From a virus (Duplodnaviria > Caudoviricetes): a stretch of 64,000 bases of DNA. Made by a program: the position numbers and the translations under genes. The notes beneath the pieces were generated by a model, which worked only from the letters and a program-made list of their open reading frames with translations, made no database searches and had not been told where the DNA came from. Numbering within the stretch: the stretch's first letter is position 1; each line of letters starts with the position of its first letter. Shown in pieces: positions 396 to 60,105 of the stretch. The DNA is taken from IMG/VR virus record IMGVR_UViG_3300027819_000006. One strand, 5' to 3'.

Positions 396-402
396 AATAA
401 AG

Positions 403-478
403 TGATTACCAGTGAAAGAGTTGAACTCTCATGACAAGGTTCAAAGCCTTGTATCTTAAACCATTAGATGAACTGGCA
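403..478 (-). tRNA. tRNA-Gln(TTG)
   Basis: ACAAGG-CT-TTG-AA-CCTTGT anticodon arm, GTTCAAC T-loop; 3' end reads ATCA instead of ACCA. Confidence 0.85.
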
Positions 479-627
479 TTTTAGATTTTAAAAACATATT
501 TTCTGACTTCATCGACAAAAGACAAAGAGACTGTATTATTTTGCTCAAGAACTTGGAGTTACACCAATATTTTCTCATTAGATAAATGAGCGCTTTGATC
601 AATTTGAATTACAAGAGCTTTTAATAT

Positions 628-855
628 TTACCAACTTTCTAAATTGATTTCATGATATATTCCACATTCACAGTATAGTATTTCTACATATATACTGCCA
701 TGAGAACCACATAACTCACATTCTCCAGAATTAGATCTTATGAATATTCTATCTGTTGTCATTTCTTTATTTAATTTAGGACAGATGTATTTTAAACAAA
801 GAAGTTTAGCATCTTTATATTTCTTTATTCTTTTCATCTGTTTCATATGTTTCAT
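628..855 (-). CDS. small Cys-rich hypothetical protein
   Basis: 75 aa, CxxC and CxC pairs. Confidence 0.5.
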   Translation of the reverse strand: MKHMKQMKRIKKYKDAKLLCLKYICPKLNKEMTTDRIFIRSNSGECELCGSHGSIYVEILYCECGIYHEINLESW

Positions 856-873
856 ATAGCTTTACTTTCAATT

Positions 874-951
874 TGGAGGGATGAAGCGGATTTGAACCGC
901 AATCTGCTTGTTTCACATACAAGCGCTTTACTCGCTTAAGCTATCATCCCC
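874..951 (-). tRNA. tRNA-His(GTG)
   Basis: CTTGT-AT-GTG-AA-ACAAG arm, extra G-1, encoded CCA. Confidence 0.9.
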
Positions 952-958
952 AATTGTT

Positions 959-1035
959 TGGAGACTCCAGTTGGAATTTCACCAACACAAAGCAATTTTG
1001 CAGATTGTTCTCTTGAATATTAGAGCATGGAGTCT
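959..1035 (-). tRNA. tRNA-Cys(GCA)
   Basis: AGACTCC/GGAGTCT acceptor, CT-GCA-AA loop, CCA. Confidence 0.85.
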
Positions 1036-1045
1036 TATTTTATAT

Positions 1046-1136
1046 TGGTCGGTAAGGAGAGATTTGAACTCTAAAGATGTTTTTATCAACATCTGACAGT
1101 TTAGCAAACTGTTTGGTTCACTATACCAGATCTTCC
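1046..1136 (-). tRNA. tRNA-Ser(GCT), degenerate acceptor and D arms
   Basis: ACAGT-TT-GCT-AA-ACTGT arm, long variable arm, GTTCAAATC T-loop, ACCA end; acceptor pairs poorly. Confidence 0.65.
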
Positions 1137-1145
1137 ATATAGTTT

Positions 1146-1244
1146 AATCTACACCAGAAATGCAGATAAAATATCTTGTGCACAGATAGATTAACATCAT
1201 TTCTTATGCTCTCAACCTGGATATCAGGAGTTGCAGTGTAGATT
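1146..1244 (-). ncRNA. putative structured small RNA (unit 1 in tRNA array)
   Basis: 9-bp closing stem AATCTACAC/GTGTAGATT, inner AGAAATG/CATTTCT stem and CCTG/CAGG hairpin. Confidence 0.45.
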
Positions 1245-1251
1245 TTTATGT

Positions 1252-1326
1252 TGGTCGAGCAAGAAAGAGTTGAACTTTCATCGACTGGTTCCCAAAACCA
1301 GGGCTATTACATTAAGCTATTGCTCG
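1252..1326 (-). tRNA. tRNA-Pro(TGG)
   Basis: CTGGT-TT-TGG-GA-ACCAG arm, CGAGCAA/TTGCTCG acceptor, CCA. Confidence 0.9.
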
Positions 1327-1337
1327 ATATTTTAATT

Positions 1338-1413
1338 TGGTGACCCGTGAGATAGTTGAAATCTCCTCTAGAGTTTGAAAGACTCTGATACTTTCCGCTG
1401 TACGAACGGGTCA
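1338..1413 (-). tRNA. tRNA-Glu(TTC)
   Basis: AGAGT-CT-TTC-AA-ACTCT arm, TGACCCG/CGGGTCA acceptor, CCA. Confidence 0.85.
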
Positions 1414-1423
1414 TTTTATATTT

Positions 1424-1501
1424 TGGTGGCTCTAACAGGATTCCAACCTGTGGCTTCCTCTTTAGAAGAGAGGCACTCTATGCGGGCTGAGTTATAGAGC
1501 C
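1424..1501 (-). tRNA. tRNA-Arg(TCT)
   Basis: CCTCT-CT-TCT-AA-AGAGG arm, CCA. Confidence 0.9.
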
Positions 1502-1578
1502 ATTTAAATTTTATATCGTCATATTAGTATTTTTCTAATATTGTATTCTTCTTCAGATTGCAACCTCTTTAAAAAATC

Positions 1579-1686
1579 ATTTTATCTGGACAAGAGTGAC
1601 GTACCAGACAAGCATCATTGAGCCACCATCAGAGGAACTTTCGTTACTCCTCCACCGCTACTTTTTTCACAAGAAAGTAGTAAAAC
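1579..1686 (-). ncRNA. putative structured small RNA (unit 2 in tRNA array)
   Basis: three hairpins, one with a GAAA tetraloop (GAGGAGTAAC-GAAA-GTTCCTC), short closing stem. Confidence 0.4.
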
Positions 1687-1701
1687 TCTTTCATATTTAA
1701 G

Positions 1702-1785
1702 TGGCCCTAGAAGGATTTGAACCTTCACCCAGATTAACTGGACTAGTTCTTAAAACTAGCGTGGCTGCCGTTACACCATAGAGCC
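1702..1785 (-). tRNA. tRNA-Leu(TAA)
   Basis: CTAGT-TT-TAA-GA-ACTAG arm, long variable arm; CCA not encoded. Confidence 0.9.
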
Positions 1786-1811
1786 ATTACTTATCCATCT
1801 TCTTACAAATA

Positions 1812-2033
1812 TCAATTCAGCTTATCAAACAGAAGTGCATAAAAAACTATAATTGCCATGACTACACAAAATACTGCATCAAATTTACCTTTATCTAATG
1901 TTCTCAGATGTTCCATTGGAGCATAACAGATAAACATTAATAGTAAGAGTCCATAGATTGCTCGAAACATTTTAGTAACCTTTCTTATAGACTGTTTATT
2001 TTGTATAGTATAATATAAACAATCTATAAACAA
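1812..2033 (-). CDS. small membrane protein
   Basis: two hydrophobic segments; downstream of conserved promoter motif; true start probably the second Met. Confidence 0.5.
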   Translation of the reverse strand: MFIDCLYYTIQNKQSIRKVTKMFRAIYGLLLLMFICYAPMEHLRTLDKGKFDAVFCVVMAIIVFYALLFDKLN

Positions 2034-2041
2034 AAGTAAAG
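2012..2041 (-). promoter_or_regulatory. conserved phage promoter motif
   Basis: TTTACT-N17-TATATT with ATAGATTGTT in spacer. Confidence 0.7.
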
Positions 2042-2056
2042 GAGTATTTTAAAATT

Positions 2057-2150
2057 ATTAGACTTGCCACAATCAACCAAAGCTGATTGTTCGCCACGTA
2101 ATTTGTCTAACTCTGAATCTGCAAGAGTGCAGATTCAGCAGTAGTCTAAT
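2057..2150 (-). ncRNA. putative structured small RNA (unit 3 in tRNA array)
   Basis: 8-bp closing stem, perfect 10-bp hairpin CTGAATCTGC/GCAGATTCAG, 9-bp hairpin with a G-U pair on the minus strand. Confidence 0.5.
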
Positions 2151-2160
2151 TTTTATTAGT

Positions 2161-2188
2161 TGGTAGCCTGGGAGCGATTTGCAGGCTA
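2161..2188 (-). pseudogene. tRNA microhelix remnant with CCA
   Basis: TAGCCTG-(11 nt)-CAGGCTA-CCA. Confidence 0.55.
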
Positions 2189-2203
2189 TGTAATAAATTT
2201 ATT

Positions 2204-2302
2204 ATATGGACTTTGTACGGGATGAGGGAGTCAAACCCTCCATCTTGGCTTTATAAGAACCAGGCATTCATCAGGTATGCTAATCCCGTACAAAGTCCAT
2301 AT
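2204..2302 (-). tRNA. tRNA-Ile(TAT) embedded in a 20-bp perfect inverted repeat
   Basis: TGGTT-CT-TAT-AA-AGCCA arm, GAGGG-TTTGACT-CCCTC T-arm; IR at 2204-2223 and 2283-2302. Confidence 0.75.
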
Positions 2303-2339
2303 TTCTATTTAAAATTATTAGCTTAAAAGTAAAAATACA

Positions 2340-3227
2340 TTATGCAAGAGCTAATTGTTTCATGAATATGTCGAATTCAACTTCTACAAATAACTCGTTA
2401 TGTTTGCCCATGTCTTTTATAATATAAACTTTATAGCCAGCTCTTTCTATTTCTTTTATTTTTATCTTTTCTCTACTCTGTACTTGTTCGACTGAATGTT
2501 TATCTGCTACTTTCTTATAATGCCAAATACCATTCCATAAAATTGCAGTTTTAATATCTTCTATTATTACATCTGCATCCCAACCATTAAAAATAGCTTC
2601 ATTATGCAGTACGTTTTTAAATTTTCTGCAACACAGTTCATAAAAATATATTTCATTCTTGCTTCTTCTTCTTAATCTCTGAGAATTAGCAGATTTTTTA
2701 CCAGCTTCTCTTGCTTTAGCTAAATATTCAGCAGAAGATCTTGTACATGTTTCACAGCAATATTTTTTATTTGAATCTATTCTTTTCAAAAACATTTTTT
2801 GACAATTGATGCTATTACATGTTACTTCTATTCTTTCTATTTTATGAATATTTACTATTCTGCCGCTTACATAACCTGATTTAATAGTATTTGATACTTT
2901 TTTTCGAGTTTCTTCACTGTGTGTTCGCGCATGCGAACATTTATCAGAACAGCATTTATGAGATAGAGCATTATCTCTAATTCTTATTTGAGTTTCGAAC
3001 CATTTGTTACATCTATCACATTTGTGAAAAACTTCAACCCATAAAATCTTTTTAGCTTTCGACTTTATACTTTTAGATAATTTCTGTAATGATTCTTCTG
3101 AAAACTTTCTTCCATAAAAGGGATTATTAGACCCTTTTAAATTTATTCCAGTGTTGCAGAATCTTTTGTGAGATGTTACTGCTCTTTTAGATTTAAAATA
3201 TCTATCGCATGTATCACATTTTATCAT
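2340..3227 (-). CDS. free-standing homing-type endonuclease (Zn finger, NUMOD3-like, Vsr/DUF559-like)
   Basis: CxxC..HxxxC N-terminus, GSNNPFYGRKFSEE repeat, SKNE..DADV..ILWNGIWHY C-terminus. Confidence 0.7.
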   Translation of the reverse strand: MIKCDTCDRYFKSKRAVTSHKRFCNTGINLKGSNNPFYGRKFSEESLQKLSKSIKSKAKKILWVEVFHKCDRCNKWFETQIRIRDNALSHKCCSDKCSHARTHSEETRKKVSNTIKSGYVSGRIVNIHKIERIEVTCNSINCQKMFLKRIDSNKKYCCETCTRSSAEYLAKAREAGKKSANSQRLRRRSKNEIYFYELCCRKFKNVLHNEAIFNGWDADVIIEDIKTAILWNGIWHYKKVADKHSVEQVQSREKIKIKEIERAGYKVYIIKDMGKHNELFVEVEFDIFMKQLALA

Positions 3228-3366
3228 TGAACTATCTCCTCAGTGTTTATACTATAATAAATATAAACATCAAAGAGAAAAGTTCAACTACATATTACCC
3301 CAATCAATACTGTTTATTGAAGCAATATTTCTACCGTCCTGGATCGGTCTGCAGGCTATTTAAAAT

Positions 3367-3834
3367 TTACTTCTTCACAAGATTTGGATCAACAATTTCC
3401 GGATTGATAATTGTAACCTTGATGTCATCCATTTCGTACTTGTACTTTCCATAAGTATTTTCAAGATATGGTCTGATTGCATCTGGTGTGAAGCAGAAAA
3501 CTGATCCATCAATATCGACCAGAACTGGCATCTTCCTTCTACTAACTTTCAATCCGATAATCTTTGCATTCTTGCTATCATAAGTGAATGGCTTATTAAT
3601 CCATTCAGGATTGAGTTGATACCACTGAGCTTCTTCAATATAGTCTCTATAGAACTGCGTAATCACAACTCCATCTTCTGCAACTGCTGAACATTCAAGC
3701 TTCATACTGAAAGATGAATCATTAAACTTGATACAGCCCTGACTGAACTTGACATTATACTTTGTTTCAACAACTTTAAGAGCATTTTCAATTTCTCTAC
3801 GGATATTCTTGAGGTTGCTCTTATCAAAAACCAT
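3367..3834 (-). CDS. hypothetical protein
   Basis: 155-aa ORF with RBS, behind conserved promoter. Confidence 0.7.
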   Translation of the reverse strand: MVFDKSNLKNIRREIENALKVVETKYNVKFSQGCIKFNDSSFSMKLECSAVAEDGVVITQFYRDYIEEAQWYQLNPEWINKPFTYDSKNAKIIGLKVSRRKMPVLVDIDGSVFCFTPDAIRPYLENTYGKYKYEMDDIKVTIINPEIVDPNLVKK

Positions 3835-3886
3835 TTTGATTTAATCTCCGTTTGAGAAGTTGTTGTATAACCATTTTGTACGGTTA

Positions 3887-3915
3887 AATATAAACTGAAT
3901 GCAAATGTAAACAAT
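3887..3915 (-). promoter_or_regulatory. conserved phage promoter motif
   Basis: TTGTTTACA...GTTTATATT. Confidence 0.6.
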
Positions 3916-3917
3916 TT

Positions 3918-4376
3918 TTATTCAATTGTCAAATTATTATCTAACCATTCTTCACACTGCTCTTGAGACTTTATATTACCAAGATTGTTCCTAAAATAGA
4001 ATAGTTTCACGTTCAAAATATTTTTAAATGCTTTAATTTTCAATTTAGATATAGTGACGTGTCTTCCTCTTCTAGAGCCCTTTATTTCTATCCATAGATT
4101 ACAATCTGGTATGAAAAAATCAGGAACATATTGCATCCCATCATCTGAAGTTCCATTGCTGATAGTGAATTTTTCAGCATTTTTAATCCAATAGATGTTT
4201 CTACTATTCAGTATATCTGCAAAAGCTAATTCATACAACCCATTCATTTCAAACTGTTCACCTTTTATATTTGCAAATTGTCTATTCTTTGTAAGCTCTT
4301 TTTGAGATTCATGGTTCAAATCAATCATGATATCTCCATTAATTGGTAACCATTTTATATGATTAAATATAAACAA
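3918..4376 (-). CDS. PD-(D/E)XK nuclease
   Basis: LYELAFA..YVPDFFI..WIEIKG. Confidence 0.7.
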   Translation of the reverse strand: MFIFNHIKWLPINGDIMIDLNHESQKELTKNRQFANIKGEQFEMNGLYELAFADILNSRNIYWIKNAEKFTISNGTSDDGMQYVPDFFIPDCNLWIEIKGSRRGRHVTISKLKIKAFKNILNVKLFYFRNNLGNIKSQEQCEEWLDNNLTIE

Positions 4377-4398
4377 TTTAACCTAAAAGTAAACAACT
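4366..4398 (-). promoter_or_regulatory. conserved phage promoter motif
   Basis: AGTTGTTTACT...ATTGTTTATATT. Confidence 0.7.
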
Positions 4399-4407
4399 GT
4401 TTTATTT

Positions 4408-4485
4408 TGTAGCATCTACTCAGATTTAAACTGAGACCCTTTGCTTGGAAGGCAAACATGCTAAATCGTTAAACACTATAGATAC
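4408..4485 (-). tRNA. tRNA-Gly(TCC)
   Basis: TTTGC-CT-TCC-AA-GCAAA arm; 3' end TACA. Confidence 0.8.
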
Positions 4486-4503
4486 TTATTTTTATATATA
4501 GAG

Positions 4504-4586
4504 TGCCAGAGGAGAGATTTGAACTCTCAGTAGGATTTCTCCAGATTGCTTCTAAAGCAATTTCGTATGCATTCCGACACTCTGGC
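4504..4586 (-). tRNA. tRNA-Leu(TAG)
   Basis: ATTGC-TT-TAG-AA-GCAAT arm, long variable arm, GCCAGAG/CTCTGGC acceptor. Confidence 0.85.
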
Positions 4587-4818
4587 TCTTTTGTAATCTT
4601 TCTATTCTATCAAGTTCTTTTTGCATTTTTAAAATTTCTAATTCTGTATATATTAACAAAATTCTTAAAGAATCTAATTTTGTATTTGCAAATAAAAATG
4701 GGTTATTAAGATTTTTCATTATTGTTTTTACTAAAGCAGTATCTACAGGAACTGTTGCAGATTTTGTAGATACTGCAAACAATAAAATACAAGCTAAAAT
4801 TAATGCCATAACTTTCAT
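4552..4818 (-). CDS. small secreted protein, 3' end overlapping tRNA-Leu
   Basis: signal-peptide-like N-terminus MKVMALILACILLFAVS. Confidence 0.5.
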   Translation of the reverse strand: MKVMALILACILLFAVSTKSATVPVDTALVKTIMKNLNNPFLFANTKLDSLRILLIYTELEILKMQKELDRIERLQKSQSVGMHTKLL

Positions 4819-4835
4819 TTTATCTCATTTTAAAA

Positions 4836-4919
4836 TTGGTAGCCCTACTCAGATTTGAACTGAGACGGCATAAATGCCACTGCTTTTGAAGCAGTTGAGT
4901 AGACATTCCTCTATAGGGC
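4836..4919 (-). tRNA. tRNA-Leu(CAA)
   Basis: ACTGC-TT-CAA-AA-GCAGT arm, variable arm, CCA. Confidence 0.9.
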
Positions 4920-4942
4920 TATTGTTATTCTTCATCATTTAT

Positions 4943-5028
4943 TAGTAGCTCTGGAGGGATTTCAACCCTCACTCCATTTAAGGAACATATTCTTGAAATA
5001 TGCGAGTCTAGCAATTTCTCCACAGAGC
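4943..5028 (-). tRNA. tRNA-Leu(CAA), second divergent copy
   Basis: CATAT-TT-CAA-GA-ATATG arm, variable arm; 3' ACTA. Confidence 0.8.
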
Positions 5029-5036
5029 TATATTTT

Positions 5037-5110
5037 TGGTGGACTGAGATGGAATCGCACATCTACCACTAGTTTTTCAAGCTAGCACTCTTCTCCTGAG
5101 TTATCAGTCC
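5037..5110 (-). tRNA. tRNA-Phe(GAA)
   Basis: TT-GAA-AA loop, GGACTGA/TCAGTCC acceptor, CCA. Confidence 0.85.
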
Positions 5111-5118
5111 CTATTTAT

Positions 5119-5142
5119 TGGTGCACTTGATAGGATTCGAAC
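5119..5142 (-). pseudogene. tRNA 3' fragment
   Basis: GTTCGAATCCTATCAAGTGCACCA only. Confidence 0.6.
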
Positions 5143-5159
5143 ATATATGAGATTTTTAT

Positions 5160-5237
5160 TGGTGGGTCTGGCAGGAATTGCACCCGCATTTTTCTCCTTA
5201 AAAGGGAGCTACAAAAGCTAATTTTTGTTACAGACCC
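5160..5237 (-). tRNA. tRNA-Lys(TTT), atypical D-arm
   Basis: CTCC-CT-TTT-AA-GGAG arm, GGGTCTG/CAGACCC acceptor, CCA. Confidence 0.75.
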
Positions 5238-5821
5238 ATTAAAATCTTTAATTCATTTATGCATTTTAAAACATTTTCTTTAACATCTTGAGCTTCAAAT
5301 CTTATAACTTTCCAACCATTTTCTATACTAAATTTATCTCTTCTTTCATCTATTAATTTAACTTTTGGTAAATTATGTGTAGACCCATCAATTTCAACAT
5401 CAATTTTTAAATCTATAAAAGCAAAATCATAACAATATATACTATGCTGATAATTGTATATCCATCCTTCAATGTTTGAATATTCTAAAGCATTTTTGAA
5501 TATTTTTTCTGGATAACTCATTTTAGAGCAATGATTTAGTTTGTATGGAACTTTTTCTGGATGTTCCATTAAATATTTTATTCGATGTAAAGATAATTTG
5601 TTTCTAGTTTCTTCAGTGTGATGTCTGCCTGTCCAATATATTCTTGCTGATTCTGATCTTTTCTTCCTCAATATTTCACTTTTATCATTATCAAGACAAA
5701 ACATTACATGAGAAGTCATTTTTTGTGGTATATCAAAACAAAATTCTTTTTTACAATGTTTGCATACATATATTTTCATTATGATCCTCCAATTATATAA
5801 TAAATATAACTGTCGAATCAT
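5228..5821 (-). CDS. DUF559/Vsr-like free-standing endonuclease
   Basis: SYPE..YDFAF..VEIDGSTH..RRD..GWKVIRF; N-terminal Zn finger; likely start at Met 5776. Confidence 0.75.
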   Translation of the reverse strand: MIRQLYLLYNWRIIMKIYVCKHCKKEFCFDIPQKMTSHVMFCLDNDKSEILRKKRSESARIYWTGRHHTEETRNKLSLHRIKYLMEHPEKVPYKLNHCSKMSYPEKIFKNALEYSNIEGWIYNYQHSIYCYDFAFIDLKIDVEIDGSTHNLPKVKLIDERRDKFSIENGWKVIRFEAQDVKENVLKCINELKILMGL

Positions 5822-5896
5822 AAAAGACTTATGTAAAAAATATTTAATAAGCTAGTTCCAGTCATGGTGTACAAGTGCTTTTAATATTCAATATTT

Positions 5897-6007
5897 TGGC
5901 TGGCATGGTGGGTACCGCCCCCACATAATCTCCGTTAATTTTACATCTCTTAGGTTTAGCCTAATTGATGGGACAGCGGAGCGCAATTGCTTGTCTGCCA
6001 CATGCCA
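5897..6007 (-). tRNA. tRNA-Asn(GTT) interrupted by 35-nt insert (5938-5972)
   Basis: TGGCATG/CATGCCA acceptor, G73, CCA; removing the insert gives CTCCG-CT-GTT-AA-CGGAG. Confidence 0.75.
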
Positions 6008-6048
6008 GTATTTAAATTAGATTGTCTGCAACAATTTTTGTATAGTTT

Positions 6049-6082
6049 AATATAAACAATCTATGATCAAATGTAAACAACT
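6049..6082 (-). promoter_or_regulatory. conserved phage promoter driving the tRNA array
   Basis: AGTTGTTTACATTTGATCATAGATTGTTTATATT = TTTACA-N17-TATATT. Confidence 0.8.
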
Positions 6083-6099
6083 ATTTTAACAAAAACAAA

Positions 6100-6293
6100 A
6101 AAGAGATAAAACTTGAATGTCTTATCTCTGTGAAAGCTGTACTGCATATAAGACATTCATTCTAAGTCACTGTAGGTCTATTTTCATGATTATAGCTTTT
6201 AAAACTATTAATAGACAAACTATCTGAACATTGCAGATAGTTATCTGATAATAAGTTATGTCTTTGCTGTATGGTCATATGATTAATCTCTTT
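6100..6293 (-). ncRNA. putative multibranched structured RNA
   Basis: 11-bp and 9-bp perfect hairpins, 8-bp closing stem, no ORF. Confidence 0.4.
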
Positions 6294-6336
6294 AGTTGTT
6301 GCTAATATAAATATATCTTAATCATAGCAAAATGCA

Positions 6337-6993
6337 TTAAAAATCAGCAGTCTGTTCTTTGTTTGCCCAAGTATTTGTTGCTATATACTGTATCCTCTTT
6401 TCATTGACAATCTTAACTGCTTCTTCTTTACTTTTAGCCCAGATTGTACAGTATAGCACATGCTCATCTTGCAACAGACTATTTTTGAAATTAGAACTGT
6501 CATCAGAATTAAATAGATAAGGATAGAATCTTTCTTTCTTTTCAAACCATTCACATCTAGGGTCGTAGTTTTTGTCTCCATGGTTCAAATCTTCTACTGG
6601 ATCCTGGCTATAGTCTGACTCAACAATAGAATCACCATTTTCTCTCATATATACTACATAAGTTTTGTAGCCATTATTTATGAATGTCAGAGCTTTGTTT
6701 ATGTTGTCTATTCTGTTGTTCAGTTTAAATGATTCTGTAGAATATTCGCAATCTTGTTGTTCTACTAATCTATTTAATTTTTCTTTGTGATCATCTGTGA
6801 AAACTCCAATTGTCTGCATTCCTGAATATTCACCTTCATATAGAACATGAACAGTTTCTTCATTTTTCATAGATAAAATGAATCTTTCTAATAGTTCTAT
6901 ATTAACTATACCTACTAAATTCATTAATCTTCTTAGCAGATCTTGTTGTTCATAATTCAGATCATATTTTAGAACCAACTCTAATGTTTTCAT
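6337..6993 (-). CDS. hypothetical protein
   Basis: 218-aa ORF, translationally coupled. Confidence 0.7.
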   Translation of the reverse strand: MKTLELVLKYDLNYEQQDLLRRLMNLVGIVNIELLERFILSMKNEETVHVLYEGEYSGMQTIGVFTDDHKEKLNRLVEQQDCEYSTESFKLNNRIDNINKALTFINNGYKTYVVYMRENGDSIVESDYSQDPVEDLNHGDKNYDPRCEWFEKKERFYPYLFNSDDSSNFKNSLLQDEHVLYCTIWAKSKEEAVKIVNEKRIQYIATNTWANKEQTADF

Positions 6994-25870: not shown

Positions 25871-26855
25871 ATTAAATTCAATTCTTTCATTTTGCTATTA
25901 TCCCATATCTCTATTGGAACATCTATATTGTTTTTAGCAAAAATGAGTTTATTTTTTGATTTTTCATCCATGTATCCTTTTACTTCTATTATTTTTGTAA
26001 GTAAATTATTTTCGAATATAAAGAAATCTCCTCTATAATGATTGTTTTTATCTTGCACTACATTCATATATTCGTATTTCCATACTATATTATTATCATC
26101 TAAATAGCAACTTTTAGCTCCCAAGACGATCTCATCCAAATATCATTATAATATCCACCTTTGCCAATGCCTGCATTTTTATATGCTGGCTCGCCATAAT
26201 GATGATGATTTTCACCTCTCAAATGATCATTACAATGCTGTTCCCACATTTCTAAAGCTTTTTCTCTACCATATTTATCTGTCCAAATATCCAATATAGA
26301 TATACCATACATAGGATTTCCTTCTCCTACATACAGTATCTTATTCCTTTCACTAGTTTTTATAGATATTGCTTTTAATCTATCATCTGTATCTTTAGTC
26401 AATCCTTTATTCCAATTTGGACTTATTATATTTGAGCAAGACATGCAATATAATTCATTCCTACCTATCTCTTTATAGCAAAAAATACATCTACCTTTGC
26501 AGTCTTTGCATATATAAGTATTATTGTTCCATGACAATTTATTTCCACAATACATGCAAAGTTTATCTATAGTGGGAACATGTCTGCATTCTGGGCACGC
26601 ATCATAATCATATTTTATTGTTAAATAATGTAATACTTTATTACAAAATCTGCATCTTTTTCTATCATTGTCTACACACTCACAGCATCTAGTTCGCTCT
26701 TTTGAAGAATTATTACCTAATTTATTATTACAACTTTCACATCTTCTAATTATAATTAATTTTGATTTCTCCAATAAACAATGTTTGCAAACTCCATGGC
26801 TATTTTTATTACCTAATCTATTACTGCACCCTTCTTCTTTACAAAATCTTATCAC
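25867..26855 (-). pseudogene. frameshifted Cys-rich homing-type PD-(D/E)XK endonuclease
   Basis: 26100-26855 ends WMRSSWELKVA; 25867-26139 continues YLDDNNIVWKYE..GDFFI..IIEVKG in another frame. Confidence 0.75.
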
Positions 26856-26874: not shown

Positions 26875-26963
26875 GAAATAGCTTATAGGTGTCTGAAAAA
26901 TACAAATTACTGTACTTTTTCCTATAAGCTATTTCATTATTTATAGCTTGTATTTTTCAGACA
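26875..26963 (-). repeat. interleaved double inverted repeat (A-B-A'-B'), copy 1
   Basis: 15-bp IR 26875-26889/26921-26935 and 16-bp IR 26890-26905/26948-26963, both perfect. Confidence 0.9.
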
Positions 26964-31439: not shown

Positions 31440-32400
31440 TTATTACTCCAGCAAGTTCACATTCTTTTAATAAATAGGACACACGAGCAATTGTTGTATG
31501 ATTCTCAAGAACATATTTAAAACAGTTTGTAGCTACTTTTTCTCTATAATCATCATTATCTAAATTATAAACTGCTTCTAAAAGTGAATCTTCGTCATCA
31601 AAATCTAAGTAATGTTCACCTCTAATAAATGAGTATGGCATATAAATCTTTATTGGTTGAGTGAGAATAAAACATCCATTTGCAAACCCTTCCCACATTC
31701 TTGCAGCGTTACAATTCAGCGACCCATAGCCATCAACACAAATTTTAGAATTGTACAAAGTTTCATAATAGTTAGAATGATCTCTATTACCAGTGTCTAC
31801 TGCAACTTTATTTTTATGATCATACATATTTCCTATAACAGAATTTTCTAACTTTGCATTTTTTAGCGTATTTTCGATCCAGATGCGATCTGGTTTTGTC
31901 TCGTCATGTGGTCCGAACATACATGCTAAATATATATTCTTATTTTTAATGTTATTTAGTATTTCATCATGAGACTTAAAAAAATATCTATTTTCTATAG
32001 CAAATGGGAATGGTTTAACATTTGAAGGATGCTCTAATGACAAAAGCATTTCTCTCTTGAAATAAAGAGCAAAATGCTCAGTGTTCTTTCTATATTTAGA
32101 AAAATCTTCACCATCGACAAAAATTGTCTTGTCTGGTCTAAATATGCTCTCTGCTATGCCATCTTTTGCTTCTTGATTTGAACATAAGATTATTAGATCA
32201 GCTATATCTTTACCAAATTTTACAGCTACATTGTCATCATATAAAGTATGATCATATTGACCTTCTACTTTTGAATAATTGCTTTGTTCAGTACAGTAAA
32301 ATTTTACTTTATTTTGAAGTGAAAGTTCATGCAAGCCCTCTATTAAAGAACTCTGACAAAAATCATAAAATTTTGATTGAATGACTAAAATTTTCAACAT
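31432..32400 (-). CDS. GT-B glycosyltransferase (CgeB/Glyco_trans_1_2-like)
   Basis: FVDGED, SKICVD..RMWEGFANG, ENHTTIARV. Confidence 0.75.
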   Translation of the reverse strand: MLKILVIQSKFYDFCQSSLIEGLHELSLQNKVKFYCTEQSNYSKVEGQYDHTLYDDNVAVKFGKDIADLIILCSNQEAKDGIAESIFRPDKTIFVDGEDFSKYRKNTEHFALYFKREMLLSLEHPSNVKPFPFAIENRYFFKSHDEILNNIKNKNIYLACMFGPHDETKPDRIWIENTLKNAKLENSVIGNMYDHKNKVAVDTGNRDHSNYYETLYNSKICVDGYGSLNCNAARMWEGFANGCFILTQPIKIYMPYSFIRGEHYLDFDDEDSLLEAVYNLDNDDYREKVATNCFKYVLENHTTIARVSYLLKECELAGVINE

Positions 32401-32509
32401 TCTTCTAAAATCTCTTCTATTTCAAACACTTCATTAAATTCTACATTTCCAATAGCTGGATAACCAGCATATATCATTATAATTATCAATTACTATATAA
32501 ACCAGTAAA

Positions 32510-33694
32510 TTAATTTTCTTTGACAGAGAGATTATAGACTCCTCTGTGCAGAATGTTTAGAGCAGCATTGAAATCTGCATCTAAACTTAGACAGCAATTC
32601 AGACATAAAAATTGTTCATTCTTCCTATTTTTTTTATCTCTGAATCCACATGTAGAACAAGTTTGAGATGTATAGAAAGAAGAAACTTTCTTCAATTCTA
32701 TACCCTGTTCTTGACACAGCATTTCAAATTTTGAAATAACACTTGGATAAGACCAATATTGCAACTTACTATTCATTTTTTTGCTATATTTTGATTTATG
32801 CTTTACTTGTTGTAAATCTTCCAAGATGACAGTAGAAACATTTTTTAAATCAATGGAGTTGCAAATTTCGTTGATTTTATTGTTTTTGAAAGTAAGATAT
32901 TGTTTATAGTTTTTAGAGCCTCTCTTCATATTTGATAGTATAGTATACATTTGTTTCATTTCTTGACCATAGACATCATTATTTGAAGAAACTATAAGTT
33001 TATTGTAACCTATATCAAAAGCAATGGAATCATGTTTTTCTTTCATCTCTACTTCTTTTTCATATGAAAATATAATATAAAAATTGTCATTTATTTTCTT
33101 TAACTGCACAGTTTTCTTTCTATTCCAGTCTTTATATTTTAAAGATTGCTTATGCCACTTTATTGGAAGATTAATTTGAATTGCTTTCTTTTTATCAGAA
33201 TAAAAATGAGGCAATTTCAGTCCTATAAACTCATTAAAATGAATAGAAGAATTTTCATAGCTGAGTAATCTGTCATCAATATTAATAGAAATATTCTTAA
33301 TGTCTATTTTGCAAATTTTTATAGCATCTTTCAATTTCAAATCTTTAAATCTTTTGTTCAGAAATTTCAGCTGTCTATTTCTTTTGATAAAGTATTTGTA
33401 GCACTTCTTATATTTTTTATATCTTTTATCTAGACAGTATTCTATATTAGATCTGACAATCTCAGAAGCTTGTTTATAGACAATTTGTCTCCACTGAGAA
33501 TGATGAATTTTGTTAATAGGAAGAATCTTAGAAGACAAATTCTTATTTAATTCTAATTTTTGAGATAAAATAAGCTCTATATAAAATTTGACGTCTATTT
33601 CATAATCTTCAAATAGTTGTTCTAAATATTTAATTTTATTTAAATTAGAAAATTTTAAAATATGTCTACTACTTCTTATCAAGATCAATCTCAC
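32510..33694 (-). mobile_element. tnpB: IS200/IS605-family TnpB RNA-guided endonuclease, no TnpA seen
   Basis: RuvC FDIG, LEDL and DAD.NAA.NI; Zn ribbon SQTCSTCG..CLNC. Confidence 0.88.
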
Positions 33695-33702
33695 AATAAA
33701 AA

Positions 33703-33777
33703 TGCCAAGTATTGAACCTCAAATAGACTATGTCTATAAAGATACTTGGCAAATAGATAACATCTATTTGAGGTTCA
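33703..33777 (-). repeat. interleaved double inverted repeat, copy 2
   Basis: 10-bp IR 33703-33712/33742-33751 and 15-bp IR 33713-33727/33763-33777. Confidence 0.85.
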
Positions 33778-33988
33778 TATATAAATATATTGTGAGATTA
33801 GAAAAAGACAAAAAGGTTAAATTTTTACATTTATTTTACATAATTTTACAGAATATAGTTACTAGTTATAATATTTATGAAAGTTGACGCTTGTTGAATT
33901 GTATCAAACTGAGATGAATTCTTTGTAACAATATTTTCTCCCCAATCTGAATCATAGCTCACTGATACTTTCACGCTGAAACTCCTTG

Positions 33989-34546
33989 TTAAATCAAAAC
34001 TTTTTGTTTAATCTGTTTTCTAGCTATTAACTCTGTTCGCATAATATCTTTATCTGTCCAGAGGTATTTTCTGAAAGTGTTAGATTTCAGAACAAAATCT
34101 GTATTTATCAAACCTTGATCATGATACAATTTAGTCCCATCTTTGCAAAAATATTCAAACCAATCATCCCCCAACTGCGTTTGGTGAGTTGGATCGCGGC
34201 GAAACGCAATATCTCCAAATGGTACTTCTATAGTTAGTAAAGCATCATGTTTCATAACTCTATATATTTCATTCATCAAAAATATGAAAGGAGTTAATTT
34301 TTCTATGTTGCCTTCTGAGTCTTGAACATATACAATTTTAGCTGTGTGTTCTAAACCATCAAATATATTTACTTTATCTATAGAACTGTCTAAATTTGGT
34401 AACGGCTGAAATCCAAGATTTAGCTTGAAAAATAGACAGTTTTCAGGTTTAGATTTAGGCTGAACTATATCTATACCAATAGTTTGATAACCTTCTTCTT
34501 CTCTAAAGTTGCTCCCTACAAAAAGCTCGAGCTTGATTTTATCCAT
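33989..34546 (-). CDS. SAM methyltransferase (type 11-like)
   Basis: LELFVG..GIDI..DGLEH..EIYRVMK..IEVP..DPTH. Confidence 0.8.
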   Translation of the reverse strand: MDKIKLELFVGSNFREEEGYQTIGIDIVQPKSKPENCLFFKLNLGFQPLPNLDSSIDKVNIFDGLEHTAKIVYVQDSEGNIEKLTPFIFLMNEIYRVMKHDALLTIEVPFGDIAFRRDPTHQTQLGDDWFEYFCKDGTKLYHDQGLINTDFVLKSNTFRKYLWTDKDIMRTELIARKQIKQKVLI

Positions 34547-35109: not shown

Positions 35110-36045
35110 TTACACCTTTTTATTTTTCAACATTTTTCTCAATGTTCTTACCAACTGCTTCCTTGCTTGATTCATTCTTTTGGTCTTTAAATCTCTTCTC
35201 TTCCTACGTATTGGCTTTAATCCTTGAGCAATCCTATCTTCATTGATCTTCTTTCTATTTTCTTCTTTGTCAATTTTCTTCTGTTCTCTGTTCTGTATAT
35301 CAATTAAAACAAGCTTATTTCTCTGTTCTGTAATATAGTCTAATAAATGATTTGATAAATAAGCAGATTTGCAAATTCCAGGAGTATTGCCAAGAAATTC
35401 AGAAGTTTTTGTAACGATCAGTTTTATTTCCTTGCTCAAATCTACTTTTTTAAGAGGAAGCTCTTTATCTTTGATAAAATCTTCATATATGCAGAAAGCT
35501 GTGTAGTTTGCTGCTAATGTTCGAAAATCTTTTGTAGTGAATATTTTGCCTATATTCTTCTTTAAATACTTCTTTATGCTTTTATCTGTGATATTTAGCC
35601 ATAAATCTGTTGATGATTCTTCATAAAATTTATGACCATATTCAATTAAAATTTTATCATCAGAAGTTATAAATTGGCTTACAACTTTTTTTCCTACAAA
35701 ATCTAGTATGATATGATTGTCATAAAATAGAATATGTTCCTTTTTCAGAGTAGAAGCTCCAAAAGTTTGAACAAATTCGCCTTCATGTCCTTTAACTACC
35801 GCTGTATAACCTTCAGCTGAGCCCTCATTTCCCACACGAATTCCGGTTTTGCAGAGTAGATATATAGCATATGCTTCTTTTGATCCAGTTTTAATATCTT
35901 CTACAATCTCGGGTTCAATTTTTGTCCAAACTTCAGCAAGCTTGTTTACTCTATTAAATTTAGAAGCTTTCTTATCCTTCTGCTTAATTCTATTGCTTTT
36001 AGAGAAAAATTCTACCTCTCTACCATTGAATATCAGTTTTGACAT
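35110..36045 (-). CDS. DNA topoisomerase IB
   Basis: TGIRVGNE, FGASTL, FVGKK, KDFRT, LGNTPGICKSAY (catalytic Tyr). Confidence 0.92.
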   Translation of the reverse strand: MSKLIFNGREVEFFSKSNRIKQKDKKASKFNRVNKLAEVWTKIEPEIVEDIKTGSKEAYAIYLLCKTGIRVGNEGSAEGYTAVVKGHEGEFVQTFGASTLKKEHILFYDNHIILDFVGKKVVSQFITSDDKILIEYGHKFYEESSTDLWLNITDKSIKKYLKKNIGKIFTTKDFRTLAANYTAFCIYEDFIKDKELPLKKVDLSKEIKLIVTKTSEFLGNTPGICKSAYLSNHLLDYITEQRNKLVLIDIQNREQKKIDKEENRKKINEDRIAQGLKPIRRKRRDLKTKRMNQARKQLVRTLRKMLKNKKV

Positions 36046-36084: not shown

Positions 36085-36118
36085 AATATAAACAAATATC
36101 ATACAAATGTAAACAACT
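36085..36118 (-). promoter_or_regulatory. conserved phage promoter upstream of topoisomerase IB
   Basis: AGTTGTTTACATTTG...TTTGTTTATATT. Confidence 0.75.
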
Positions 36119-37247
36119 TTTTTTCATCTTTTAATAAATCTTCTTTAAACAAAATATAGAATATTTTTGATTCTTTATCGTATTTTTCAATAAAAATTTG
36201 CATTTTCTCTTTAGATTCTGGTCTCATCCAGCCTTTAACTTCTTCTATTCTTATCAAATTATTATTTTCATCATAGATAAAGAAATCAGGAGTATAAGTT
36301 GTATTTTCTAATTTATAAGTTATTTCTTCATATTTCCAATTTGCAGATATAGAATCTAGAAATTGAGCTCTTTCCAGCTCATAGGTAGATTTCATCTTTA
36401 TTTCAGCATTGTTTCTATCTGCATAAACAACTCGATGCCACTTAGGAGATACTCCATACATAGGATTTCCAGAACCAGATCTATCTATAGACCATTTTTG
36501 TTTTTGTTCGTCTGAAAAAATATATCCATACATGCTATTTTTGCTACCAGTCATAGGATTAACACGATGATTTTCTTTATGTTTATTAATTAATTTTAAT
36601 AATTTATTTTCTGCAATTTCCTCTCCATATTTAATTACCCAAGCATCAAAAAAAGACATTCCAAACATTGGGTTTTTGTCTCCTTTTAATGATTCAGAAA
36701 TGTTTCTCTTATGAGAATCTGAAAGTTTTTTATCTTGCCAAACACCAGGCCTACCCATTAAAGATTTAGATATTTTTTCTTTTACTCCAGGCTTATGTAC
36801 AGGATTTCTATCTCCAAGTTTACAACAAACTCTGCACATATTTAAATCTGCAGAAACTACATTAGTGCATCCTTCTTCAACACAATAGAAAGTTTTAGAA
36901 GCTTTACATTCATCACAAATAAAAATTTTTCTATGACCTTTAAGCATTTTATCTCCACATACTGTACATCTACAAGTATTTTTCTCAGACATATAAAATT
37001 GATGTTTTGAACATCTACTACCTTCATTTTTTACTTTATTGTTGCAATTTTCTATTAAGCATTTATATTCTATTTTATTTCTGCAATCTCCACAAATACC
37101 AATTTTATTAGTTCCGCCTATAGGATTTATTTTACAAGTTTTGCATATTAATGGAGGTTTTCCACTCTTACATCTTTTACAGATATTACTTTTATAATTA
37201 ACATTAAGTTTTTTAGGGCACGATATACAGTATCTATCTTCTTGCAT
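36099..37247 (-). CDS. Cys-rich NUMOD3 + PD-(D/E)XK homing-type endonuclease
   Basis: many CxxC pairs, GDKNPMFG repeats, KSTYE..YTPDFFIY..EEVKGW. Confidence 0.8.
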   Translation of the reverse strand: MQEDRYCISCPKKLNVNYKSNICKRCKSGKPPLICKTCKINPIGGTNKIGICGDCRNKIEYKCLIENCNNKVKNEGSRCSKHQFYMSEKNTCRCTVCGDKMLKGHRKIFICDECKASKTFYCVEEGCTNVVSADLNMCRVCCKLGDRNPVHKPGVKEKISKSLMGRPGVWQDKKLSDSHKRNISESLKGDKNPMFGMSFFDAWVIKYGEEIAENKLLKLINKHKENHRVNPMTGSKNSMYGYIFSDEQKQKWSIDRSGSGNPMYGVSPKWHRVVYADRNNAEIKMKSTYELERAQFLDSISANWKYEEITYKLENTTYTPDFFIYDENNNLIRIEEVKGWMRPESKEKMQIFIEKYDKESKIFYILFKEDLLKDEKKLFTFV

Positions 37248-37260
37248 TACCTCTCCAAAA

Positions 37261-37352
37261 AAAAATTGTCTATAGTAGCACCCTAATAGACTGAAGTCAG
37301 AAGGCTATAGACAATTTTTCAAATATATTTATGTTTTGTCTATTAGTGTGCT
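37261..37352 (-). repeat. interleaved double inverted repeat, copy 3
   Basis: 15-bp IR 37261-37275/37305-37319; 15-bp IR with one mismatch 37277-37291/37338-37352. Confidence 0.8.
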
Positions 37353-59109: not shown

Positions 59110-59973
59110 TTAGCAAATTATACGCCAAACTATATCTATTTCGTCTTCCCAGATGCGAATTAGTCTATAACCATTATCTTCAGCTATTCTATTTTTTCTA
59201 TTATCATTATCAATCTTTCCCTTTTGCCATTCATTTACAGGTCCATTAACATATATTCTAGGATTACAGTGATAATAGTTACCATCAACTTCTATTAACA
59301 TGTTATATTCTGGAATATAAAAATCAAAATAAGATTTATTTAAATAAAACTGACTCTTATACTCTATATTTAAACTATCTAAAATCTTAGCTATTTTTAT
59401 TTCAGGTTTACTTATTCTATATTTAAGACATTTTTCATTTCTATTTTTATTTCTTGCAATCCACATTTCTTCTGCTTTTTCAAGACCATGTTTTTCTATC
59501 CATATATCTTTAAGTGATTTACCATACATGGGATTTTTGCTTCCAGAAACATCTGCATGATTTTCTGACATACTAACAGTTGATTTTTTTATTCTTTCAT
59601 CAGTTTCTTTAGTTAAGCCTTTATTCCATGTTATTATAGATCCTTGTTCAAGCCTTTCTATTCGTGTTTCAGATATTTTATTACATGATTCGATAGAATG
59701 TTTTCTACCATACATGGGATTATTTTCACCCTTTGCTAAACCTTTTTCTATTCTAGTTTTAGATATTTTAGCTTTAGTTTCTTCAGATGCTTTTCTCCCT
59801 TTCAACTTTCCTGAATTTTTACATTTATGACATTTTCTATTCAGCCCAGTAACTTCGTTCAAGCAATTTGTCGCAGCACATTTATATTTGATATATTCTA
59901 TGCATTCTTGACATATTCCAGATTTATTTCTATTGCCTAATTCATTAATACCACAAATATAGCATAATAGCAT
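59110..59973 (-). CDS. NUMOD3 + DUF559/Vsr-like homing-type endonuclease
   Basis: GENNPMYGRKHS, SKPE..FDFYI..IEVDGNYYH..GYRLIRIWE. Confidence 0.85.
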   Translation of the reverse strand: MLLCYICGINELGNRNKSGICQECIEYIKYKCAATNCLNEVTGLNRKCHKCKNSGKLKGRKASEETKAKISKTRIEKGLAKGENNPMYGRKHSIESCNKISETRIERLEQGSIITWNKGLTKETDERIKKSTVSMSENHADVSGSKNPMYGKSLKDIWIEKHGLEKAEEMWIARNKNRNEKCLKYRISKPEIKIAKILDSLNIEYKSQFYLNKSYFDFYIPEYNMLIEVDGNYYHCNPRIYVNGPVNEWQKGKIDNDNRKNRIAEDNGYRLIRIWEDEIDIVWRIIC

Positions 59974-59990
59974 TATACATTCTCAAATAA

Positions 59991-60072
59991 AAAGACTTAC
60001 AGTGTGGATAAGAAATAATAGCAAAGCTATTTTCACTGTAAGTCTTTGTAAACTACTATTATTTCTTATCCA
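59991..60072 (-). repeat. interleaved double inverted repeat, copy 4
   Basis: 14-bp IR 59991-60004/60034-60047 and 17-bp IR 60005-60021/60056-60072, both perfect. Confidence 0.9.
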
Positions 60073-60105
60073 ATAATAAATATATTTGAGAAAATGCAAA
60101 ATGCA

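Follow-up and report, generated by a model that had tools for sequence, protein, structure and literature searches.

The tnpB locus and its leader

We analysed a 64,000-nt stretch (hereafter, the window) of the virus record IMGVR_UViG_3300027819_000006 (Duplodnaviria; Caudoviricetes) from IMG/VR, and focused on the region in front of its tnpB gene, where two inverted repeats are interleaved at positions 33703-33777. The gene lies on the minus strand (32510-33682), starts with TTG and encodes a 390-aa protein of the TnpB/Cas12f-like RNA-guided nuclease family. The open reading frame (ORF) 32510-33694 matches PF07282 (Cas12f1-like TNB domain) with E = 3.4e-17, while the match of the tnpB product to the NCBIfam TnpB subfamily NF040570 (E = 1.3e-22) reaches 80.6 bits, which is below the curated cut-off of 100 bits. 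The RuvC D-E-D residues (D223, E288 and D368/D370) and four zinc-finger cysteines are invariant in 23 homologues. The original prediction had placed the repeats just upstream of the TnpB start, and so they are, the true start being the TTG at 33682-33680 and not the GTG at 33694. We assigned the start to this TTG because homologues in two phage records begin with MIRTSKH, which aligns there, and because the database entry for the tnpB product comprises the same 390 residues.

Inverted repeat A (33703-33712 / 33742-33751) is 10 nt long and 100% complementary, and inverted repeat B (33713-33737 / 33753-33777) is 25 nt long and 84% complementary, with its outer 15 nt (33713-33727 / 33763-33777) being perfect. 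On the plus strand, the left arm of A ends at 33712 and that of B begins at 33713, and the two repeats interleave; such an arrangement of abutting 10-bp and 15-bp repeats had been noticed before, and our repeat search of the window agrees with it, both repeats being perfect. Both A and B are enclosed by an outer repeat C (33687-33698 / 33788-33799), 12 nt long and also perfect; neither this pair nor the conserved promoter-like motif next to it is mentioned in the original prediction.

All of the genes around this element are on the minus strand. Read in that direction, the order of features is a sigma70-like promoter with arm C in its spacer, B, A, B', A', a U-tract, GAGA and the TTG of tnpB, while the arms alone follow each other as C, B, A, B', A', C'. 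The 5' arm of the outer helix, arm C (33788-33799), is located inside the promoter spacer. It is followed by arm B, the 5' arm of helix B (33763-33777; 15 bp perfect, or 25 positions at 84%), and by arm A, the 5' arm of helix A (33742-33751; 10 bp), which sits in the helix B loop. The 3' arm of helix B, B' (33713-33727), abuts the 3' arm of helix A, A' (33703-33712), with no gap between them, and the TTGGC core of A' is kept in all TnpB-linked leaders. Directly after A' comes the U-tract (TTTTTATT on the sense strand, 33695-33702). Arm C', the 3' arm of the outer helix (33687-33698), covers the GAGA ribosome-binding site at 33692-33689 and ends 4 nt 5' of the tnpB start codon, the TTG itself being 20 nt downstream of arm A'. 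Helices A and B share no bases, and each of them holds one arm of the other in its loop. We refer to this whole arrangement as the leader. A 61-aa ORF on the plus strand (33702-33887) overlaps the leader; it has no family match and runs opposite to all its neighbours, and we treated it as spurious.

At the leader, a promoter scan read a -35-like hexamer TTGTCT (33806-33811, minus), a spacer of 16 nt and a -10-like hexamer TATATT (33789-33784), the latter belonging to a conserved ATATATTTAT block at 33781-33790. The scan alone is weak (25 matches in the region against 13.8 expected), so that our promoter call relies on the conservation of the motif. The coding strand of the window contains five copies of the motif TG[CT][AC]TTT-N13-ATATATTTAT and the opposite strand none, and the motif precedes all four leaders found in the window (see below). 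The exact 10-mer ATATATTTAT was found nine times in the window versus 2.5 expected; six of these copies are on the coding strand, four of them before interleaved leaders. The predicted transcription start would fall at about the first bases of arm B. Arm C, lying in the promoter spacer and thus upstream of the predicted start, would be absent from transcripts of the leader's own promoter. A U-rich run and then a GAGA or GGAG ribosome site follow A' in all seven leaders that we compared.

Between the leader promoter and an upstream 185-aa gene, there is a 42-aa ORF (33846-33974, minus) that starts with GTG behind a strong AAGGAG ribosome site and has no match in Pfam or PHROG. This ORF and the leader are all that is found in the 290 nt upstream of the window tnpB; no tnpA is present there.

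Given that the genome has about 29% G+C and that short AT-only repeats are common in it, one might suppose that inverted repeats simply clustered by chance in AT-rich intergenic DNA. Yet the window has three places (26875-26963, 33703-33777 and 59991-60072) where two perfect repeats of 10 nt or more are interleaved, no such place arose in any of 30 Markov shuffles, and the stricter layout with abutting left arms gave four matches in the window versus a mean of 0.1 in shuffles. When we scanned 391 kb of collected sequence on both strands with G.U pairs tolerated, the layout appeared only four times in the window and at two related TnpB loci. As is described below, the layout is also found again in front of nuclease genes, at fixed positions, and it shows covariation between genomes. 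Overall, chance is so improbable an explanation that we leave it aside.

We also considered whether the arms of the TnpB leader are copies of a nearby target or guide, and rejected this possibility, as no third arm copy exists in the window. Further copies of arms A and B, separately or joined, were absent from the tnpB 3' end, and elsewhere in the window only near-matches at chance level were found. Rfam gave a single match overlapping the leader, to a miRNA model and at chance level (22.7 bits, the gathering score being 55; E = 0.33), and in the whole window only tRNAs reach the gathering score.

Leaders of other nuclease genes and of related TnpB loci

Three other genes in the window are preceded by leaders of this type, all on the minus strand. 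Leader E3 (59980-60092), with 17 bp in B, 14 bp in A and an outer helix of 10 bp, stands before a NUMOD3/Vsr-like homing endonuclease gene (59110-59973). Leader E1 (26875-26963; B 16 bp, A 15 bp) stands before a zinc-ribbon protein gene with a GTG start (26100-26855). Leader E4 (37261-37346) is a looser variant, with 9 bp in B, 15 bp in A and a 7-nt gap between B' and A', and stands before a NUMOD3 endonuclease-like gene (36099-37247). All four window leaders, including that of tnpB, end 14-21 nt before a minus-strand start codon. The E1, E3 and E4 genes encode mutually related zinc-ribbon/NUMOD3 proteins, the N-terminal part of the E1 gene product being paralogous to the E3 endonuclease. Two of the three sister genes have PD-(D/E)XK-type nuclease ends, Vsr/DUF559-like in one case and DUF1064/resolvase-like in the other, while no nuclease domain was recognised in the product of the E1 gene (26100-26855). 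The proposed likeness of the tnpB element to elements before homing-type nucleases is therefore borne out, since the layout, the promoter motif and the tail with the U-tract and ribosome site all precede three homing-endonuclease-like genes.

To find out who else carries the leader, we collected 237 TnpB homologues and 80 metagenome loci and scanned 59 upstream regions, the window copy included. The leader was present only in the window, in L007 and in L019; two other matches were weak, AT-only and at the level of shuffles (mean 1.2). L007 is a paralogue located in the same 271,885-bp contig of this groundwater phage as the window. One more locus, L103, was added after the scan and turned out to be the fourth carrier of the full leader. 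The homologues sharing 38-62% identity (L001, L002, L004, L009, L010-15 and L021) have plain AT-rich upstream regions and ATG starts. The seven leaderless homologues that were inspected by eye have ATG as their start, and TTG is the start codon of every tnpB gene with a full or half leader. A 13-nt piece of the tail, TTTTTATTTGAGA, is shared without change by E3, an endonuclease leader, and by the TnpB leader of L007.

The four carriers have different neighbours. The window tnpB lies between the 185-aa gene, which is unknown, and a glycosyltransferase gene; L007 comes after a helicase gene; the L019a leader, on a contig from Hainich groundwater, is at a locus preceding a glycosyltransferase gene non-homologous to that of the window; and the L103 locus, also on a Hainich groundwater contig, is found between opposite-strand genes. 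Because homologous leaders are thus carried by four loci in different surroundings, the leader travels with tnpB in this clade and is in effect the 5' part of a tnpB cassette. An apparent synteny between the window and L019 was rejected, the glycosyltransferases downstream of tnpB not being homologous, and a weak likeness of the regions downstream of tnpB in three phages was traced to unrelated downstream genes and dropped.

The sliding DNA identity between the window and L007 delimits this cassette. It is about 40% upstream of the promoter and 83% over the segment from A through the linker L and B' to A', then 50-75% in the 5' half of the coding sequence, 80-92% in its last ~150 nt and about 45% just past the stop codon. 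Such a profile places the cassette unit between ~33811 and ~32510. Its best-conserved stretch (32510-32650, minus; 80-92% DNA identity to the L007 paralogue) probably holds, as we infer, the guide-RNA scaffold, for which the 3' end is the expected place, and the right boundary of the cassette; no family in Rfam, RAGATH-18 included, matched at the tnpB 3' end. Between the tnpB stop and the glycosyltransferase gene, there is also a 27-aa ORF (32392-32475, minus), whose stop overlaps the glycosyltransferase ATG (ATGTTGA), as in translationally coupled genes. This small ORF may be the remnant end of a gene that was split or displaced by the tnpB cassette.

What preceded tnpB before the leader may be seen in its relatives. 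In L018, which at 83% identity is the nearest relative outside, the tnpB start is overlapped by the C-terminal end of an IS607 transposase (NF033518), and L107 and L108, which belong to the same 9-member clade of the tree as the window tnpB, have a complete resolvase-type tnpA (PF00239, Resolvase) upstream. Since these loci carry tnpA at that very place, we conclude that the ancestral state of the clade was IS607 (tnpA-tnpB) and that the leader now stands where tnpA stood. On this comparison, the window copy is a tnpA-less derivative and not an intact IS607. The promoter-like sequence before the IS607 tnpA of L107 (800-855) resembles the L019a leader promoter, which suggests that the leader cassettes might have inherited an IS607 promoter. 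The -10 element of L107 is only ~3 nt before the tnpA ATG, and such a distance suggests a leaderless tnpA mRNA.

Two loci show an incomplete leader. L019b (L019 5468-5620) and L106 (530-680), both from Hainich groundwater, have retained A', the U-tract and the ribosome site and nothing else of the leader, and this remainder is fused to a reading frame lying upstream; the half leader is read in frame within an N-terminal extension of ~50 residues beginning at an ATG. These half leaders may be decaying, or they may have been recruited into the coding sequence. Outside the collected loci, the search was less rewarding: no close DNA relatives of the window were found in the phage collection, a TnpB protein scan of viral contigs revealed no relative, and an exact-pattern scan of viral contigs for the conserved 19-mer of A' and the U-tract gave two matches, both inside unrelated coding sequence.

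Keeping in mind that an inverted repeat lies near the 5' end of a tnpB-bearing unit and is inherited with tnpB in a small clade, we should ask whether it is the standard subterminal hairpin of an IS200/IS605 left end. Left-end hairpins of this family (IS608, ISDra2) are short and imperfect, occur at both ends, are bound by the Y1 TnpA as single-stranded DNA and are conserved across the IS group. The window leader differs in being neither present at both ends, nor associated with a Y1 TnpA, nor conserved group-wide. Besides the window, only two of the 58 other scanned TnpB loci carry the structure, no related hairpin is found at the right end of the tnpB element, the clade relatives possess a serine recombinase in place of the Y1 (HUH) TnpA, and the same layout precedes genes that are not of transposons. 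The comparison of left ends of related tnpB loci, set beforehand as the test of this point, showed that the structure is not standard there, as only clade members carry it. Hence, the view that we are not dealing with an IS200/IS605 end holds, the leader being absent from most TnpB loci scanned, lacking a right-end counterpart and preceding non-transposon genes; we give an IS200/IS605 end a very slight chance indeed. The choice of IS200/IS605 as the frame of reference, in turn, has to be abandoned, because the relevant family is IS607, with a serine-recombinase TnpA, and the leader sits at the tnpA place of its relatives. IS607 elements have no terminal repeats (PMC13565253).

Several other features of the window are worth mentioning. 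The 15-nt arm A of E4 has a third copy with one mismatch at 36485-36499 (minus), inside the E4 endonuclease gene and ~760 nt past the gene start; we estimate that ~0.03 such matches would occur by chance. Next to this NUMOD3 endonuclease gene, positions 35110-36045 (minus) encode a eukaryotic-type topoisomerase IB catalytic core (PF01028, E = 1.9e-16), which is unusual in a tailed phage. The fifth copy of the promoter motif (at 6336) lies in the region 5830-6340 (minus), where it is followed by a 38-aa ORF, by a 10-bp hairpin and by a stretch of ~270 nt with a higher G+C content. This stretch looks structured and has no Rfam match, and it is followed by a DUF559 (Vsr-like) endonuclease-like gene (5228-5821). 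The region 5830-6340 could be an intron-like or otherwise structured RNA with a nuclease. Finally, 11 tRNA genes are clustered at 400-5240 (minus).

Pairing, covariation and a putative control mechanism

For the seven leaders, pairs and compensations were counted with custom scripts on helices anchored by hand, because MAFFT had not brought the arms of the four TnpB leaders into register. The leaders contain 185 arm positions, of which 182 are Watson-Crick pairs and three are G.U (one in L019a and two in L103), with no A.C and no other mismatch. The G.U pairs can form only on the sense strand. Between the window and L007, helix B shows three both-sided changes (A-T to G-C once and C-G to T-A twice) plus a paired indel, and no pair is broken. 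Helix A shows two or three both-sided changes in each of three comparisons (window versus L019a, window versus L103 and L019a versus L103), with up to four when ungapped, and helix C differs between the window and E3 by a paired one-base insertion. Moreover, L019a and L103 are close relatives and yet differ throughout helix B, A' being retained. Although not a formal test, such covariation is, in our opinion, good evidence that all three helices have been selected.

The outer helix deserves separate attention, for it pairs with the ribosome-site region. The calculated duplex energy in the window is -25.3 kcal/mol (z = -5.2 versus shuffles), and z is -5.8 in E3; the helix has 11 bp in L103 and 8 bp in L019a. 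In modelled structures, the stretch from the ribosome site to the start of the window leader is unpaired with a value of 0.25 in read-through RNA versus 0.49 in own-promoter RNA, and for E3 the corresponding figures are 0.09 and 0.64. Modelled accessibility of this stretch is lower in read-through RNA in 7/7 leaders, the difference being clear in four and marginal in three. As for the inner helices, their energies are comparable, with E1 favouring A by 9 kcal/mol, the window copy favouring B by 7 kcal/mol and E3 being about equal. A preference that varies from copy to copy between states of comparable modelled energy is what might be expected of a bistable element.

The distances between the arms restrict how A and B could coexist. 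The linker is 12-27 nt between A and B' and 8-18 nt between B and A, and there is none between B' and A'. By our own geometric estimate, the missing B'-A' linker and the mere 8-18 nt between B and A do not permit coaxial stacking; consequently, A and B must either alternate or form a sharply bent pseudoknot. In the A state, linker L pairs with the first bases of B', which produces a long hairpin with the U-tract right behind it. L103 has a tail of 31 nt, and there the U-tract adjoins A' and not the ribosome site; the fact that the U-tract stays at A' argues for a terminator-like role of A together with the U-tract.

Overall, we consider it probable that the leader is a promoter combined with a folded RNA that restrains expression of the nuclease. 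The fixed orientation relative to the promoter and start codon, the sense-strand G.U pairs and the helix over the ribosome site point to control at the RNA level, and we infer that RNA rather than DNA is the active form. The unit would be a self-contained cassette consisting of its own promoter, ~95 nt of folded RNA, a U-tract, a weak ribosome site, a likewise weak TTG start and tnpB, and the same kind of cassette would serve the protein-guided homing endonucleases of the phage. In the TnpB lineage considered here, the leader would have replaced the IS607 serine-recombinase tnpA, giving rise to a free-standing RNA-guided nuclease gene. Any transcript that enters from upstream genes would contain both C arms, so that helix C would hide the ribosome site; transcripts from the leader's own promoter would lack arm C and expose it. 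With a small hairpin inside it and the U-tract right behind it, helix A resembles a transcription terminator, and helix B, which would be transcribed first, might prevent its formation, thus playing the role of an antiterminator. Such roles of A and B constitute our leading but unproven sub-model. If all this were so, upstream transcription would pass to the downstream phage genes while tnpB stays untranslated, and the leader would meter the own-promoter transcripts reaching tnpB. Of the earlier suggestion of a shared phage-level control or mobility module, the control part thus gains support from the orientation, the G.U pairs and the ribosome-site helix, while mobility found no support in any test.

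Several observations weigh against this interpretation. The covariation comes from few and partly related sequences, with the helix alignments anchored by hand, and pairing that is 98% Watson-Crick is unusually clean for RNA and fits a DNA-level structure equally well. Folding energies of the sense and antisense strands are alike, so that they do not tell which strand matters. The outer helix is weak in E1 and L007. The leader promoter, the transcription start and any termination are predictions, and a standard terminator scan of 32200-34200 called no terminator; the hairpin of helix A is long and A+U-rich, has few G-C pairs and carries a 29-nt loop. In addition, helix B is upstream of everything in both transcript classes, and no signal favouring the A state was identified.

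The same repeats might act mainly as DNA, for example as a promoter/stem-loop linker or a recombination hotspot that shuffles nuclease cassettes, the RNA effects being secondary. Such an idea is in line with the nearly exclusive Watson-Crick pairing, with the promoter and the 13-nt tail common to the endonuclease leader E3 and the TnpB leader L007, and with the wholesale swap of helix B between L019a and L103 around a conserved A', which suggests modular exchange. A precedent is provided by PeSLs, promoter-plus-stem-loop cassettes of ~100 bp that recombine and form mini-circles (PMC2839356). What speaks for RNA is that the orientation to the promoter and start codon is fixed in 7/7 leaders, that the only non-Watson-Crick pairs are sense-strand G.U, which would be A.C mismatches on the other strand, and that one helix lies specifically over the ribosome site. 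Furthermore, if selection acted for recombination alone, compensatory substitutions would hardly be expected. Arms 29-40 nt apart also extrude poorly from duplex DNA. We thus regard a primarily DNA-level role as unlikely, keeping in mind that a regulatory cassette may also recombine, in which case both readings would be true.

An alternative at the RNA level is that A and B form together, yielding a compact, bent long-stem pseudoknot at the mRNA 5' end that works as a static block or stabiliser, either by capping the RNA against nucleases or by anchoring a repressor protein, the latter being the case in the T4 gene 32 leader. In its favour, A and B share no bases and both are kept by covariation, the linker between A and B' (12-27 nt) suffices in every case to span helix B, and the U-rich single strand separating the fold from the ribosome site is reminiscent of the T4 gene 32 operator. 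The geometry is less accommodating: with no B'-A' linker and only 8-18 nt separating B from A, our own estimate rules out a coaxial stack of 25-31 bp and leaves only a sharp fold-back, and winding 10-15 bp inside a closed loop is kinetically hard. A static pseudoknot of this kind seems to us rather doubtful.

Known systems and biological implications

The putative logic of helix C has counterparts elsewhere. In the fold-back inhibition of IS10 and IS50, read-in transcripts hide the transposase ribosome site and own-promoter transcripts do not. Those are simple two-arm structures in DDE transposons, unlike the composite leader of a phage tnpB described here. Closer still is the case of T4-type phages, in which a helix over the ribosome site with an internal promoter has been established for I-TevI and proposed for I-TevII, I-TevIII, segB and Aeh1 mobE (PMC2988022). 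Here, as there, a selfish nuclease gene is placed in a co-directional phage transcription unit, and in both cases the helix would hide the ribosome site in read-in RNA while transcripts of the internal promoter would lack its 5' arm; helix C has the same geometry. The stable helix over the ribosome site that typifies such control is represented in the window by 12 perfect bp covering GAGA. The differences are that our leader comprises ~95 nt with two covarying interleaved helices and a U-tract between the sequestering arms, that its predicted promoter looks sigma70-like or middle-type and not like a T4 late one (TATAAATA), and that the gene is an RNA-guided TnpB.

Another relative is the PeSL of the T4-type phages RB49 and phi1, whose stem-loop acts as a terminator or attenuator (PMC2839356). 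PeSLs are likewise intergenic units of ~100 bp with a sigma70-like promoter, a stem-loop and a Shine-Dalgarno sequence before a start codon, and they similarly occur in many copies per genome and are linked to accessory or mobile genes (PMC2839356). The window agrees with this description, as it has five promoter copies, four of them with a structured leader and a ribosome site before a start codon. In contrast to the single, often G/C-run stem-loop of PeSLs, which flanks orphan genes generally, the module of the window has three nested and interleaved helices, no arm consensus and a tie to nuclease genes. A third likeness is found in seg43(25) of Aeromonas phage 25, a free-standing endonuclease gene with a very stable hairpin just upstream of its ribosome site and not covering it (PMC2988022); that is a single hairpin, whereas the leader has two interleaved helices and a separate helix for the ribosome site. 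In the literature that we searched, we found no description of an interleaved covarying pair, nor of such a leader on a TnpB that lost its IS607 transposase. Accordingly, the logic of helix C and the promoter-plus-stem-loop cassettes are known, while the interleaved covarying pair and the leader on a transposase-less IS607 TnpB appear to be new.

It is tempting to go one step further. Tentatively, and with the odds somewhat against so broad a scenario, we would suppose that uncultured T4-like phages possess a portable control module defined by its fold, that this module captured an IS607 tnpB and displaced the transposase, turning the gene into a free-standing RNA-guided homing nuclease, and that the interleaved pair is a new type of switch operating by topological exclusion. 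If this were true, the promoter, the two interleaved helices and the ribosome-site clamp would be parts of a module that could be placed before any selfish nuclease.

Cas12 descends from TnpB nucleases, which are mostly regarded as passengers of IS200/IS605 or IS607 transposons. The leader suggests that phages handle their selfish nucleases in one way, whether these are guided by RNA or by protein, and it indicates an evolutionary route from a transposon gene to a free-standing homing gene. Mutual exclusion of the inner helices without shared nucleotides would be unusual among regulatory RNAs. The leader itself, if confirmed, would represent a compact, sequence-independent design for silencing a toxic gene inside a read-through transcription unit.

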